A stretch of 64,000 nucleotides of DNA from an uncultured Clostridia bacterium (lineage in GTDB: Bacteria > Bacillota > Clostridia > Christensenellales > Borkfalkiaceae): NCBI GenBank assembly GCA_947589285.1, contig CANPZV010000002.1, positions 619-64,618 on the forward strand, given 5' to 3'. Numbering within the stretch: the first letter of the stretch is position 1; each line of letters begins with the position of its first letter. Shown in pieces: positions 9,244 to 53,681 of this stretch. Made by a program: the position numbers and the translations under genes. Below the pieces are notes generated by a model. It made no database searches, was not told the origin of the DNA, and saw only the letters and a list, made by a program, of their open reading frames with translations.

Positions 9244-9286
9244 GCAAAAAGAAAAGACATAACGGCATTTCCTCGCCATTATGTCT
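9244..9286 (-). terminator. Intrinsic terminator of carboxypeptidase gene
   Basis: 12-bp stem 9255-9266 / 9275-9286 (one G-U on the minus-strand RNA), 8-nt loop, UUUUCUUUUU tail. The 5' arm overlaps motif copy 1. Confidence 0.65.
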
Positions 9287-9305
9287 GACATAGTACTATT
9301 CAAAA
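9278..9305 (+). repeat. Dispersed dual-palindrome motif, copy 1 of 8
   Basis: attatgtctgacatagtactattcaaaa. The 20-nt core has 1 mismatch to consensus. 8 nt downstream of stop codon 9309-9311. Confidence 0.9.
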
Positions 9306-9308
9306 CGG

Positions 9309-10454
9309 TCAATTCCAATTTTTCGCGGCCTCTCGGAAGGCGTCCCACCATGTGAAGGCGGGCGCGTCGTCCATGGAGAGGAGCCTCGTCCGTCCGATCT
9401 CGACGCCGTTCGAAAAGAGGATGGCCTCTCCCGCGGCGTCTCCCTTACAGACGGGTGCGTTCAAGCCCTCGATCGCATATTCGACGGAGCAATCGGCGTT
9501 CTCCCCTTTTTTGCCGAAAACGGAGAGCGATTTTTCGGCGCAGAGCCTCATTTCCTTGCACTTGCTCCCCAAGACCGCGGCTCTTTCTCCGATCTCCTCC
9601 CCCGCTTTCAGGACAGTGCGGCACTCATACCCGTTGAAGGCCTCGTCAAAGAGCGAAGAGACGATCGCGTTTCTCTCTTTGGAATTTTCCGCGCCGATGA
9701 CGACGCTGACGATCCTCATATCCCCGCGCTTGGCGGTGGCGGCAAGGCAGGAACCCGCCTCGTTCGTATAGCCCGTCTTGCCCCCGTCGCATCCGTTGTA
9801 GAAGCGGACGAGCTTGTTCGTATTCGTCATGAGGATCTTCCTCCCGTCGGGATGCTCAAAGTCCTCCGTCCAGATCTTTGTGTATTCAAAGTACTTCTCA
9901 TGTTTCAGAAGCTCACACAGCATGACGGAGACGTCTTTGGCGCAGGAGTACTGCGGCTCCTTCGGAAGCCCCGTGCAGTTTGCAAAAAGCGTATTTTCCG
10001 CGCCGAGTTCCTTGGCCCGCGCGTTCATTCTGTCGATAAAGGCGGTCTCGCTCCCCGCGACCCGCTCGGCAATGGCGACGCAGGAATCGTTCGCAGAACA
10101 CACGACGATCGATTTCAGAAGCGATTCGACCGTATAGGAAAGCCCCGCGGCGAGAAAGACCTGGGATCCCCCCATTCCGGCCGCATTTTCGCTGACGGTG
10201 ACCGTCTCACCGTAATCAAGTTCCCCGCGGTCGGCCGCCTCAAAGGAGAGGAGCAACGTCATGATCTTGCACATGCTCGCGATCGGGAGACGCTTTGTCT
10301 CCTCCTTTGCGTAGATGACCGTCCCCGTCCCGTAGTCGCACGAATAGGCCGATTTGCAGTCAGGCTCGGTCTCGAGCGCACGGACAGTCACGCCGTTTCC
10401 CATCATAAAGATCCCCGCCGCAAGAAGCGCGGCAGCGCAAACAATTTTCTTCAT
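9309..10454 (-). CDS. D-alanyl-D-alanine carboxypeptidase (DacB/DacF-like)
   Basis: SxxK (ASMCK), SxN (SAND), KTG (KTGYT). Signal peptide MKKIVCAAALLAAG. ATG 10454, with an upstream GTG at 10460 also possible. Confidence 0.85.
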   Translation of the reverse strand: MKKIVCAAALLAAGIFMMGNGVTVRALETEPDCKSAYSCDYGTGTVIYAKEETKRLPIASMCKIMTLLLSFEAADRGELDYGETVTVSENAAGMGGSQVFLAAGLSYTVESLLKSIVVCSANDSCVAIAERVAGSETAFIDRMNARAKELGAENTLFANCTGLPKEPQYSCAKDVSVMLCELLKHEKYFEYTKIWTEDFEHPDGRKILMTNTNKLVRFYNGCDGGKTGYTNEAGSCLAATAKRGDMRIVSVVIGAENSKERNAIVSSLFDEAFNGYECRTVLKAGEEIGERAAVLGSKCKEMRLCAEKSLSVFGKKGENADCSVEYAIEGLNAPVCKGDAAGEAILFSNGVEIGRTRLLSMDDAPAFTWWDAFREAAKNWN

Positions 10455-10488
10455 ATCCACAGTTTGTGACAGGAGACGGAAAATAAAC

Positions 10489-11085
10489 TTACAAAATTTT
10501 ACCTATCGGGTGAAAGAGTGCGAGGAGAAGGATCATCTCGAAAAGACAGACCGCGATGACAAGGCCAAGCAGGATCAGAGCGTCGCGCAGGAGGTCGAGA
10601 AAATCGCAGGCGCAAAAACAGAAGGAAAAAGCCCGCGCAAACGCTAGCGTCGCCGCAAAGACGAGAATGGCGTCGGCGCAGAGATGAACGGGCAGATAGA
10701 GAACAAAGACGATCATCGCCCCCGTTACCCCGTAATATTCGAAAAAAACGTACAGGCACCCGCCGCAGGTGAAGGCGCGGTAGGCGAGGACGGCGAGCGG
10801 AAGAAGGAGCGCGATCGGGTGAAAACTTCCGATGAGGATGAGAAGGAGCAGAAGCGCGCATCCCCCCGTCCGTTGGAGAAAGATGAGAAAGACGTTCGTA
10901 TCGGAGAAGCAGACGTCGGTCAAAAAGCCGTCGCAGATGGAGAGATGATAGTCATAGACGGCGGACGTCGTGACAAAGCATGCCCCGAGGATCAAAAAGA
11001 CGAGAACGAGGAGCGAGAGAAAGATCAAGGTCTTTTTCCGCGAAAAGACGCTCCCGAAAAAATTTTGCAAAAAAAATCGGTCCAT
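10489..11085 (-). CDS. Polytopic membrane protein, SpoIIM-like
   Basis: 198 aa with about 5 TM segments. Size and topology resemble stage II sporulation protein M. No diagnostic motif. Confidence 0.4.
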   Translation of the reverse strand: MDRFFLQNFFGSVFSRKKTLIFLSLLVLVFLILGACFVTTSAVYDYHLSICDGFLTDVCFSDTNVFLIFLQRTGGCALLLLLILIGSFHPIALLLPLAVLAYRAFTCGGCLYVFFEYYGVTGAMIVFVLYLPVHLCADAILVFAATLAFARAFSFCFCACDFLDLLRDALILLGLVIAVCLFEMILLLALFHPIGKIL

Positions 11086-52211: not shown

Positions 52212-53545
52212 CAGAGCGCCTCCCCGACGTGCAGGATCGCGCGTTCCAACTCGCCGAGAACTTCCGCGCAGAGGCGGCCGTCCTCCCCCTCGGCGAGGAG
52301 GCGGATCAGGGGTTCCGTCCCCGACGGTCTGAGCAGGATCCTCCCGCCGACAAGGGCGACTTTTGCCTTTTTAAGGGCATTTTGTACCCCTTCATCCCGC
52401 AAAACGGCCCCTTTGTCCGCGACTTTGACGTTTTTTATGTACTGCGGAATGCGAACAAATCCCTCGAGGAGACAGGAGAGCGGGCACTTGTTTTCGAGCA
52501 TCGTCTCCATGACTTTGAGTGCCGTGAGAATGCCGTCGCCCGTCGCGGAGACCTTGCGGAAAATGATGTGCCCCGACTGCTCGCCGCCGAGCATGTAGCC
52601 GCTCGAGACGAGTTCGTCGTGTACGAACTTATCCCCGACGTCGCACCGCAGGAGAGAAATTCCGTCCCTTGCAAGGCTCTCCTCAAGCCCTAAATTGCTC
52701 ATCACCGTCGCAACGACGCCGTTCCCGTCAAGCTCCCCGCGGTTCTTCATGGCGCGGGCGGAGAGATAGAGAATGCCGTCGCCATCAACGACGTCTCCCC
52801 GCTCATCCACGCAGATACAGCGGTCGGCATCCCCGTCGAATGCAAACCCAACGTCAAGATTCCGCTCGATCACGAGCGTTTGCAGTGCGGAAATATGGGT
52901 GGAACCGCAATTTTCGTTGATATTTGTGCCGTTCGGCTCCGCACCGATCGCTATGACGCGCGCCCCGAGCGCGTCAAAGACCGTCTTTGCGATCTGCCAT
53001 GCGCTGCCGTTTGCGCAGTCGATCCCCACGCGCATACCGCGGAACGAGGCGCGGGACAGCGTGAGAAGGTAGGCGAGATAGCGGTTCCTGCCCGCCACGA
53101 AGTCCACGGTCCGCCCGATGTCCTCGCCCGTCGCAAGGGGGATATTCCCCCCGTCGAGATACTCTTCGACGCGACAGAGAACATGCTCTTCGAGCTTTTC
53201 CCCGCCCGAATTGAAGAGCTTGATGCCGTTGTCGGAATATGGATTGTGGCTGGCGGAGATCATCACGCCGCAGTCGAATCCCTCCGTCCGCGTGAGATAG
53301 GAGACGGACGGCGTCGTCGTCACATGGAGCAGATAGACGTCCGCCCCCGACGCCGTCGCACCCGCCGTAAAGGCATATTCGAACATGTACGAGGAGAGCC
53401 TCGTATCCTTTCCGACGAGGATCCTCGCCCGCGTCCCGCGTGAAAAATATCTGCCCAAAAAACGGCCCGCGCGGAAGGCATGGATCGCCGTTAGCGTCTC
53501 GTTTGCCCTACCGCGGAAGCCGTCTGTCCCGAAATATTTCCCCAA
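52211..53545 (-). CDS. glmM: Phosphoglucosamine mutase
   Basis: KYFGTDGFRG N-terminus, phosphoserine loop ISASHNP. TTG start 53545 with GGGAGGTG SD is preferred over ATG 53644, which adds an atypical 33 aa. Confidence 0.9.
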   Translation of the reverse strand: MGKYFGTDGFRGRANETLTAIHAFRAGRFLGRYFSRGTRARILVGKDTRLSSYMFEYAFTAGATASGADVYLLHVTTTPSVSYLTRTEGFDCGVMISASHNPYSDNGIKLFNSGGEKLEEHVLCRVEEYLDGGNIPLATGEDIGRTVDFVAGRNRYLAYLLTLSRASFRGMRVGIDCANGSAWQIAKTVFDALGARVIAIGAEPNGTNINENCGSTHISALQTLVIERNLDVGFAFDGDADRCICVDERGDVVDGDGILYLSARAMKNRGELDGNGVVATVMSNLGLEESLARDGISLLRCDVGDKFVHDELVSSGYMLGGEQSGHIIFRKVSATGDGILTALKVMETMLENKCPLSCLLEGFVRIPQYIKNVKVADKGAVLRDEGVQNALKKAKVALVGGRILLRPSGTEPLIRLLAEGEDGRLCAEVLGELERAILHVGEAL

Positions 53546-53604
53546 ACAAGCACCTCCCGCCCCCGTTGACACGGGGTGCAAATCATCGTATGAAGAGGCG
53601 CTTT

Positions 53605-53651
53605 TTTTTGTGAAAATAGCCGCTTTTGAGAGTTTTCCCCTCAAAAACGGC
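53605..53651 (-). terminator. Terminator-like hairpin after glpK
   Basis: 12-bp stem 53640-53651 / 53619-53630 (one G-U), 9-nt loop, UAUUUUC tail (weak U-run). Directly follows motif copy 8. Confidence 0.45.
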
Positions 53652-53653
53652 TT

Positions 53654-53681
53654 ATTATGTCTGACATAGTACTATGTAAAT
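53654..53681 (+). repeat. Dispersed dual-palindrome motif, copy 8 of 8
   Basis: attatgtctgacatagtactatgtaaat, perfect core, 14 nt after glpK stop codon 53691-53693. Confidence 0.9.

Follow-up and report, generated by a model that had tools for sequence, protein, structure and literature searches.

Oriented palindromic elements with helically phased flanks at conserved positions in gut Clostridia: candidate sites for a membrane-anchored PadR-type protein

Introduction

The stretch of DNA analysed here in full, referred to as the window (64 kb; bases 2204-66203 of the 81.6-kb metagenome contig ERZ27249206 NODE_142), carries eight copies of a 27-28-bp palindromic element, all in one orientation and all recurring at orthologous positions in other species. 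Judging from its sequence, the host is a sporulating Clostridium of the gut, similar to Christensenellales/Borkfalkiaceae. The eight elements are probably high-affinity, sequence-specific sites on double-stranded DNA, and constitute a candidate array for a protein with an N-terminal PadR domain and predicted C-terminal transmembrane helices (PadR-TM), the promoter of which carries the same element. On the comparisons described below, the chromosomal positions of the site set are fixed across a clade of gut Clostridia at about the rank of a family (Borkfalkia, Gallimonas and relatives). Proteins that organise the chromosome by binding specific sequences, such as ParB, Noc, RacA, MatP and SlmA, are known from a few model bacteria only, and Clostridia are not known to have several of them; the present case provides a candidate protein, an exact DNA code, and a conserved site map that can be read from metagenomes.

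Results

Eight full copies of the element in the window

The 20-mer ATGTCTGACATAGTACTATG was found in eight copies in the 64-kb window, each with 0-2 mismatches and all on the plus strand, starting at positions 9281, 17967, 23985, 30390, 33259, 41787, 51371 and 53657, whereas dinucleotide-preserving shuffles of the window contained no match to it. The 9-mer TGTCTGACA was present exactly eight times, confined to these copies, against an expectation of 0.2. When both strands were scanned with a position-weight matrix derived from 147 related sites, the eight sites scored 44-53 bits, and only two other matches exceeded 8 bits (8.9 and 11.7), both being palindromic shadows of two of the sites; nothing in the shuffles scored above 8 bits. 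Thus, the window is free of inverted or decayed copies, and the scores are bimodal, i.e., there are full copies or nothing. Alignment of all eight copies showed that the similarity ends at about 29 bp, with no extended repeat outside the core, and the copies are therefore not the termini of a longer repeat.

These results bear out most of what an initial annotation of this DNA had proposed, namely eight copies in the same orientation, an invariant 9-mer, the lack of an inverted copy, and the location of three copies in conserved genes, which are dxs, spoIIIAE and glmS, all intact. Its exclusion of insertion sequence (IS) or miniature inverted-repeat transposable element (MITE) termini also holds, there being no longer repeat, no decayed copies and no indels. 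One position had to be corrected: the second copy, which had been placed at 17954-17981, actually occupies approximately 17964-17991, its 20-mer starting at 17967, 13 nt from 17954.

Anatomy of the element and its variants

Read on the gene-sense (minus) strand, the element is tTTTG-CATAGTACTATG-TCAGA-CATAATA. In the sequence logo about 27 positions are conserved, forming a block of 27-28 bp, and about 24 of them are near-invariant across species. The dominant symmetry is a 19-bp palindrome, TACTATGTC-A-GACATA(A/G)TA, with the consensus TACTATGTCAGACATA(A/G)TA, which can be written as TACT-N11-A(A/G)TA. The hexamer GCATAG, conserved only on the gene-upstream side, completes a second palindrome, CATAGTACTATG, and it is this one-sidedness that makes the site polar. 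In all copies ATGT and ACAT stand 3 nt apart (ATGT-CAG-ACAT), and GTAC lies at the centre of the palindrome CATA-GTAC-TATG. The two overlapping palindromes recognised in the initial annotation were thus correct but incomplete, as the stronger 19-bp palindrome, the 27-28-bp block and the phased flanks had been missed.

A fully symmetric form, CATAGTACTATG-TCAGA-CATAGTACTATG, is conserved within the PBP1A gene of six species, and tandem doublets of the element also exist. The symmetric double site, CATAGTACTATGTCAGACAGAGTACTATG, was located at L065:3242 (L numbers designate loci), with orthologues in L047, L049, L064, L091 and L093, in a gene for a class A penicillin-binding protein (transglycosylase-transpeptidase); among the matches listed, this is the only cluster without polarity. 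In some sites the 5-nt spacer is altered (CGTGA, GCACA), the outer parts being unchanged. The variant CATAGTACTATG-CGTGA-CATAA was seen at L002:1207, L053:4887, L096:7204, L038:7459 and L051:5642, in genomes that also hold canonical sites, and at the sequence level it suggests either that the central 5 nt are less critical than the outer half-sites or that there are two classes of site. On the window's own contig, two diverged copies stand head-to-head at L119:640-705 (about 74.8 kb on the contig, 8.6 kb past the right end of the window), between an SDR gene and an HD-domain gene; they read TTTTGCGTAGTATTATGGCACACATAATA and, 32 nt away on the opposite strand, TAATATTATGTCAGGCATAATT. These two copies retain the outer half-sites around the spacer GCACA and may represent a weaker or second-specificity site. 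Apart from this degenerate pair, no copy was found in an extra 9 kb of the contig.

Helically phased A/T flanks

The element is embedded in AnTn tracts, with A/T maxima every 10.5 bp from about -66 to +84, i.e., over some 70-80 bp per side and about 150 bp in total. The spectral power at the 10.5-bp A/T period was 0.49 upstream and 0.33 downstream, compared with a null maximum of 0.03 in 300 random sets, and the phasing was detected separately in in-gene sites, intergenic sites and singleton clusters. It is mirror-symmetric, with peaks at about ±7, 17, 27, 37, 48, 58.5 and 69 bp from the centre of the palindrome; since the pattern is periodic, mirror centres 5 or 10 bp away fit equally. In the eight window sites alone, A/T content was 68% at the predicted peaks versus 33% at the troughs, which was matched by none of 1000 random sets. 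With an AnTn tract once per helical turn over 70-80 bp on each side, about 150 bp would be pre-bent or wrapped in the complex. Phasing of this kind, present even in coding sequence, is a property of putatively bent or wrapped duplex DNA.

Conservation and placement across species

An exact-pattern scan with one genome per species retrieved at least 118 motif-bearing blocks, at least 116 of which came from uncultured Clostridia metagenome-assembled genomes, including Candidatus Borkfalkia and Gallimonas. The other two among the matches listed are in-gene matches in Staphylococcus auricularis, where the 20-mer CAGAGTACTATGTCAGACAT occurs at L087:149 and L112:5921, in a stretch common to two assemblies and without the TTTTG flank. 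Because about nine chance matches of the 19-mer pattern are expected in 596 Gb, these were treated as coincidence. The window and the listed blocks together hold at least 147 non-redundant sites, which fall into at least 56 orthology clusters. All eight window sites recur at orthologous positions in other species, dozens of species being involved overall, and the search of related genomes that the initial annotation had recommended thus found the motif at such positions in many Clostridia. Orthologous copies differ by 0-3 mismatches, in flanks that are only 65-87% identical, and the conservation extends to synonymous positions of dxs, spoIIIAE and glmS. Together with the lack of intermediates, this argues for purifying selection on fixed functional sites rather than for a mobile or drive-maintained repeat. 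About 30% of the blocks among the matches listed are syntenic to the 64-kb window; either this region is unusually rich in sites, or the sites in it are the best conserved. The density is 1 per 8 kb in the window, while contigs with multiple blocks suggest nearer 1 per 25-100 kb in general.

The placement of the sites follows a clear pattern. Among the matches listed, 51 intergenic sites lie between tandem co-oriented genes and 29 between convergent genes (about 15 expected), with five between tandem anti-oriented genes and two between divergent genes; divergent promoter regions are thus avoided. The core usually starts 0-50 nt past the stop of the co-oriented gene (median about 14), the next start codon being further off. 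In-gene copies among the matches listed are co-oriented with the host gene in 52 cases and anti-oriented in 13; they use the two stop-free reading frames and avoid the one that contains TAG. Counted by cluster, about 8-10 of 54 listed are in-gene, in operons with overlapping genes. Overall, about 90% of the listed sites are co-oriented with the flanking or host genes, and within the window, as well as within five of the six multi-block contigs listed, the orientation does not change over tens of kb. The window together with the rest of the 81.6-kb contig shows a single site orientation and a monotonic GC skew; third-codon GC skew per 8-kb block was too noisy to separate gene from replication orientation. 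A strand-polar signal, another of the roles listed in the initial annotation, may be compatible with the asymmetry of the sites and their co-orientation with genes. Since folA starts 21 nt after site 5 (Table 1), its transcription must pass through this site. Transcripts of dxs, spoIIIAE and glmS must likewise cross a site to reach the 3' part of the gene, and the orientation seen must therefore be permissive for RNA polymerase.

A membrane-anchored PadR-type protein as candidate binder

One cluster, represented by L095 and L034, breaks the rule of placement: here, the motif is reversed and lies 4-5 nt upstream of a TTGACA-17-TA(C/T)AAT promoter. The gene behind this promoter encodes a protein of 660-790 residues, PadR-TM, with an N-terminal PadR winged-helix domain, a long charged linker rich in E, K and A (150-600 residues), and four C-terminal hydrophobic helices. 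The motif was also found 4-5 nt upstream of the TTGACA -35 element of the PadR-TM gene in L125 and L129, and homologue loci that were fetched individually showed the same arrangement, the more distant ones with diverged versions of the element. When metagenomes were scanned with an N-terminal-domain alignment, 80 loci were obtained, in 75 of which the gene could be located. A motif-like 20-mer in the same orientation was present upstream of the PadR-TM start in 70 of these 75, at most 260 nt from the predicted start (mostly 20-110 nt) and usually abutting TTGACA; most of these 20-mers had 1-5 mismatches, for which the chance rate is about 0.002 per locus. The central spacer of the promoter elements varies between lineages, with TCAGA, TCACA and TCAAA among its forms, whereas CATAGTACT and CATAATA are constant, and the A/T phasing around them is in register with that of the dispersed sites. 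The location of the element immediately upstream of the -35 points to autoregulation.

The architecture of PadR-TM is conserved in about 60 full-length genes, with total lengths of 430-960 residues. Four C-terminal hydrophobic segments were predicted by a hydropathy scan in about 60 homologues, and the N-terminal domain matches PadR-s2 structures with E = 1e-26. The operators of Clostridioides difficile cdPadR1 are TACT(N11-12)AGTA and GTACTAT(N2)ATTATA(N)AGTA in an essential A/T-rich context, those of PadR and LmrR are ATGT-N8/10-ACAT, and cdPadR1 forms higher-order complexes on longer DNA (PMC5050560). Among several possible roles, the initial annotation had listed that of an array to which a dimeric protein binds in order to organise the chromosome or to regulate; this role gains support from the fixed orthologous positions and purifying selection, and further from the absence of decayed copies, the bending signature, and the match to the operator in the PadR-gene promoter.

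Several observations weigh against PadR-TM as the binder of the dispersed sites. No copy of the gene was detected on the contig of the window, and when it was sought in the sample from which the window derives, the closest homologues came from other samples. The PadR-TM gene could also be controlled by some other factor with specificity for the motif. With respect to the neighbouring transcription unit, the dispersed sites face the other way from the autoregulatory site; most of them are located at 3' ends, an unusual position for the sites of a PadR regulator. Instead of the classic PadR spacing, ATGT-N8-ACAT, the element has ATGT-N3-ACAT. Lastly, we know of no description of 150 bp of phased flanks for PadR proteins, and such flanks are equally a hallmark of DNA gyrase sites.

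A search of the PadR-TM loci for further lineage-specific copies gave one extra site in 321 kb, the loci being too short for this purpose. Three DNA-binding proteins encoded in the window, a HipB-like helix-turn-helix (HTH) protein (12307-12603), ArgR (15497-15952) and an MntR/DtxR-like protein (26385-26747), were rejected as binders, as their promoters have no site and their known operators differ.

Discussion

Proposed mode of action and its implications

In the model that we favour, a dimer would read the 19-bp palindrome and a further subunit or dimer would read the extra half-site GCATAG, while the phased A/T tracts would let about 150 bp curve around the protein complex. PadR-TM would regulate its own gene through the promoter element and would also occupy the dispersed copies. 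As a membrane-integral protein is predicted, the sites that it occupies would be pulled towards the membrane, such that defined loci would be docked, as bent nucleoprotein complexes, to a membrane-anchored protein. The sites are accommodated without disturbing promoters, either just past stop codons or in tolerant codons of tightly packed operons, and their orientation is such that RNA polymerase, and probably the replisome too, would meet the auxiliary half-site first.

As for the cellular role, we infer a range of options: a tether or architectural element similar to Noc and RacA, insulation, a polar barrier, or a roadblock on the envelope genes glmS, glmM, dxs, PBP1A and dac. A complete chromosome-membrane docking system, in which a PadR-like membrane protein with a long charged linker clamps a few dozen fixed and oriented sites, each wrapping about 150 bp, is offered as a tentative possibility. 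If true, the sites would be hard-wired points of membrane attachment or boundaries, and the system would amount to a tether of the Noc/RacA kind or to an oriented barrier resembling CTCF, although made from another family of proteins.

The PadR protein family and its type of operator are already known. What is new, by the literature searched, is the membrane-integral architecture, the dozens of oriented and conserved non-promoter sites, including those in essential genes, and the nucleosome-scale phasing. The literature search found no paper containing the motif sequence, nothing relevant under Borkfalkia or Gallimonas, and nothing on membrane-anchored PadR proteins. Sites in the codons of the essential genes dxs and glmS cost synonymous as well as amino-acid freedom, and each site has helical A/T phasing imposed on about 150 bp around it; this implies strong selection on structure at the level of the chromosome. 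If the binder is truly membrane-integral, it would offer a handle on the coupling of DNA to the envelope, on domain boundaries and on directional action upon polymerases. In practical terms, the element could serve as a clade marker, and the protein and its site as a ready-made, high-affinity, DNA-bending pair.

Alternative explanations

The phased flanks bring to mind DNA gyrase, or another type IIA topoisomerase that wraps DNA, whose strong sites at the 3' ends of genes would remove the positive supercoils generated by transcription; the element would then be a functional analogue of the repetitive extragenic palindrome (REP) and bacterial interspersed mosaic element BIME-2, or of the strong site of phage Mu, with cleavage at the GTAC of CATA-GTAC-TATG. 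The flanks are indeed symmetric and periodic at about 10.5 bp over some 65-80 bp per side, and the sites lie just past stop codons and between convergent genes. They resemble the gyrase motif of Escherichia coli, a 130-bp pattern whose flanks have a period of 10.75 bp and turn A/T towards the protein; gyrase in that species accumulates downstream of transcription units (PMC6379681). They also resemble the sites of pneumococcal gyrase, which cuts at GxxC within symmetric flanks phased at 10 bp (PMC12630141). GTAC conforms to GxxC, and its centre (position 5.5) is about 1.5 bp away from one good mirror centre of the phasing (position 4.0, r = 0.84). However, recognition by gyrase is degenerate and occurs by indirect readout, and the downstream attraction in E. 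coli is explicitly not hard-wired (PMC6379681), whereas about 24 positions of the present element are near-invariant across species, in contrast to all gyrase sites described. Gyrase also leaves unexplained the fixed promoter-proximal element of one DNA-binding gene in about 70 loci, and an enzyme with two-fold symmetry does not account for the asymmetry and strict orientation of the sites; overall, we regard this explanation as quite improbable. A polar barrier or insulator similar to Ter-RTP or Ter-Tus is unlikely as well, although it competes with the proposed function rather than with the identity of the binder, which could still be PadR-TM. Traffic would pass from the side of the auxiliary half-site and be blocked from the other, the blocked traffic being convergent read-through, antisense transcription or backward forks. 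In the Ter-RTP logic of Bacillus subtilis (Ter A/B sites), a strong site is combined with an overlapping auxiliary site, and the strong palindrome with its overlapping one-sided auxiliary half-site follows the same logic. The barrier would also suit the passage of transcription through essential genes in the observed direction, the one conserved position with a fully symmetric variant (the PBP1A gene, six species), and, among the matches listed, the co-orientation of about 90% of the sites with genes, the unchanged orientation across tens of kb in the window and in five of the six multi-block contigs, and the enrichment of convergent regions (29 against about 15). Nonetheless, no homology to RTP or Tus exists, and no flip of orientation was observed across the window, its 81.6-kb contig or the multi-block contigs. 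Ter complexes are not known to wrap 150 bp, and the polarity of the block is pure inference.

Two further explanations are given very little weight. A selfish or drive-maintained repeat, i.e., a REP/MITE-like mobile element or a DNA-uptake sequence, would produce many dispersed, near-identical copies such as these, and REP and DNA uptake sequences (DUS) are likewise enriched past the 3' ends of genes and between convergent genes; the preference of in-gene copies for certain reading frames and the A/T tracts beside the core, which are also found in the uptake signal sequence (USS) of Haemophilus, point in the same direction. Contrary to this explanation, no decayed copies exist and the scores are bimodal, orthologous positions are retained without indels at 65-85% flank identity, the density is low (1 per 8 kb in the window and lower elsewhere), and the orientation bias is strong. 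No transposase adjoined the sites in the neighbouring genes scanned, although no systematic genome search was made; the motif is absent from plasmid and phage collections, and viral contigs matched it at chance level (10 matches, only one with the full motif). REP/BIME or MITE was also rejected on the rule that such elements are strictly extragenic, which is broken by the three of eight window copies that lie within intact genes, and the DNA-uptake role suggested in the initial annotation is not supported, given the low density, the strong orientation bias and the lack of a graded mismatch spectrum. The element as a signal in transcription or RNA, be it a sigma-A or sporulation-sigma promoter, an intrinsic terminator or a stabiliser of mRNA 3' ends, would be an AT-rich block co-oriented with genes, near stops and, at sites 4 and 8, near terminator hairpins, and hexamers resembling TTGCAT and CATAAT are present. 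These hexamers, however, are 14 nt apart, while the promoters of this organism are the canonical TTGACA-17-TATAAT, and the 29 sites between convergent genes (among the matches listed) have nothing downstream to drive; with the wrong spacing and no conserved -10 on either strand, a promoter of either sigma type was rejected. As RNA, the element folds no better than shuffled sequence (z = -0.4 to +0.5) and matches no Rfam family, and the two-sided 10.5-bp phasing, seen also in coding sequence, is a property of duplex DNA. The role as an RNA 3'-end element, another suggestion of the initial annotation, finds no support, as the RNA lacks structure (z about 0), the phasing belongs to the DNA, and part of the sites are in-gene. 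A likeness to the XerD arm of dif (ATTATGT) was dismissed because the XerC arm and the central region are lacking.

Genomic context of the window

The window has 57% G+C and a steadily negative GC skew, and most of its genes lie on the minus strand; among the genes are a dacF-like one, scpA/B, spoIVB, recN, argR, tlyA, dxs, the spoIIIA operon, mntR, typA, thyA-folA, gpsA and glmM-glmS. The eight sites are listed in Table 1. The five intergenic ones each lie 0-21 nt past the stop of the upstream gene. Alignment of site 2 to solved Dxs and of site 7 to E. coli GlmS revealed no insertion or deletion, i.e., the motif is written into existing codons. L031 lacks site 5, yet the spacing there is unchanged in length.

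Table 1 The eight copies of the element in the window (coordinates in window positions; all read on the minus strand)
Site	Coordinates	Strand	Score (bits)	Placement	Surroundings and remarks	Orthologues
1	9277..9304	-	45.4	Intergenic, 8 nt past stop of PBP5/DacF-like D-Ala-D-Ala carboxypeptidase gene (9309-10460)	Sense strand ttttgAATAGTACTATGTCAGACATaat; M50 peptidase-ScpA-ScpB genes downstream; phased A/T flanks ~9216-9366	L101, L108, L111: 0 mismatches; flank identity 67-77%
2	17963..17990	-	44.4	Within dxs (17609-19315)	Codons 444-450 (HSTLSDI), in frame	L005, L015, L027, L073: same position, 0-1 mismatches; flanks 69-79% identical
3	23981..24008	-	53.4	Within spoIIIAE (23213-24430)	Codons 143-149 (QSTMSDI)	Cluster of at least 12 members; 0-1 mismatches in the 7 alignable on both flanks (65-81% identity)
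4	30386..30413	-	51.5	Intergenic, immediately past typA/bipA stop (gene 30410-32329)	Intrinsic-terminator-like hairpin next at 30376-30342; yabP/yabQ-like genes downstream	L031: 0 mismatches
5	33255..33282	-	52.1	Intergenic, 49-nt thyA-folA spacer	8 nt past thyA stop (33287), 21 nt ahead of folA start (33237), 4 nt ahead of folA Shine-Dalgarno	L001, L004: 0 mismatches
6	41783..41810	-	45.2	Intergenic, 21 nt past gpsA stop (gene 41828-42847)	Internal ATG is predicted start (MSDII...) of YcxB-like open reading frame (41225-41797)	L037, L089, L090: 0 mismatches
7	51367..51394	-	44.2	Within glmS (50445-52211)	Codons 274-281 (CKVLCQTE, second open frame); GlmS linker ahead of SIS domain	L025, L056, L074, L115: 2-3 mismatches
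8	53653..53680	-	50.6	Intergenic, 14 nt past stop of FGGY sugar kinase gene (53691-55301)	Hairpin next; likely glmM start ~110 nt downstream	L055, L056, L074, L115: 0-3 mismatches

In several loci the downstream open reading frame has its first start codon within the element, at the ATG of …ACT ATG TCA GAC ATA…, namely at 41787-41797 in the window and in L014, L036, L046, L053, L058, L098, L103 and L116. The frame of this ATG is that of most in-gene copies (HSTMSDI), and no Shine-Dalgarno sequence stands ahead of it. The genes glmM and glmS (50445-53644) overlap and apparently form one operon; Rfam detected neither a glmS ribozyme nor any riboswitch in the window, and the motif sites here lie about 110 nt upstream of glmM and inside glmS. 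Two tRNA genes in the window are at 41051-41124 (minus strand) and 57758-57845 (plus strand), and the former is preceded by a perfect TTGACA-17-TAAAAT at 41168-41140, from which it follows that the organism uses canonical sigma-A promoters.

A small gene for an Xre-type HTH protein (12307-12603) stands ahead of one for a HipA-like kinase toxin (11207-12310), and the pair (11207-12603) looks like a hipBA toxin-antitoxin module, situated just downstream of a putative spoIVB (12726-13736) in the recN-argR-dxs neighbourhood. Just left of the window, L121:245-2194 (contig bases 245-2194) holds the end of the contig, with one gene for a large serine recombinase (Resolvase + Recombinase + Zn_ribbon_recom) and another, small one for an HTH protein; these adjoin the first gene of the window and may mark the edge of a prophage or integrative element.

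Comparison with known systems

Several well-known classes of chromosomal sequence were compared with the element. KOPS/SRS and Chi are short skewed oligomers of 5-8 nt, and only their skewed orientation is similar to that of the 27-bp duplex palindrome seen here. The element has neither the 16-18-nt hexamer spacing of sigma-70 promoters nor the GC-rich hairpin and U tract of intrinsic terminators. DNA uptake sequences (USS/DUS) occur at about 1 per kb, in both orientations and with many one-off variants, none of which is the case here. Gyrase sites and REP/BIME-2 are alike in their extent of about 130-150 bp, in symmetric flanks phased at 10.5-10.75 bp, and in their location downstream of genes; in contrast to them, the central 27 bp are invariant here and would be read base-specifically, the element is not mobile or repetitive in the sense of REP, and it doubles as a promoter-proximal feature of a regulator gene. 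With Ter-RTP and Ter-Tus, the sites share the asymmetric combination of a strong and an overlapping auxiliary site, co-oriented arrays, conserved positions and the presence of some copies in genes, but there is no related protein here, the copies are more numerous, and the flanks are phased and putatively wrapped.

Parallels also exist on the protein side. ToxR, CadC, TcpP and BcrR also have a DNA-binding domain tethered to the membrane by transmembrane segments. CadC reportedly has an N-terminal DNA-binding domain and a C-terminal transmembrane anchor, and its binding is said to drag the target DNA to the membrane, while BcrR combines an HTH with four transmembrane helices. These regulators act at one or a few promoters through an OmpR or Xre domain, whereas dozens of non-promoter sites, a very long and variable linker and a PadR domain characterise the present candidate. 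As for PadR operators, both the TACT/AGTA and the ATGT/ACAT half-sites are found in the element, the cdPadR1 motif contains the very same string GTACTAT, A/T-rich DNA surrounds the half-sites, and the presence of the element in the promoter of a PadR-domain gene is the classic autoregulatory arrangement. The differences are that known PadR proteins are soluble repressors of 110-180 residues, whereas PadR-TM is a predicted integral-membrane fusion; that most of the sites are not in promoters but past stops or in genes, at positions conserved across species; and that the element has the polarity of an extra half-site, about 150 bp of phased flanks, and ATGT and ACAT 3 nt rather than 8-10 nt apart.

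In organisation, the sites resemble the arrays of the chromosome organisers Noc-NBS, RacA-ram, ParB-parS, SlmA-SBS, MatP-matS and RefZ-RBM, which comprise tens of specific palindromic sites per genome, many of them in genes and at places that related species share. Noc and RacA, moreover, link the DNA that they bind to the membrane or the cell pole. No relation of the motif to parS or NBS is seen, the motif being asymmetric and not the perfect 14-16-bp palindrome of the ParB (CTPase) family. The candidate binder is of the PadR winged-helix type, and not ParB, TetR or MerR-like, and it has a predicted transmembrane anchor in place of an amphipathic helix or a partner protein; the asymmetric and co-oriented sites, the A/T phasing over about 150 bp and the preference for positions just past stop codons further set this array apart.

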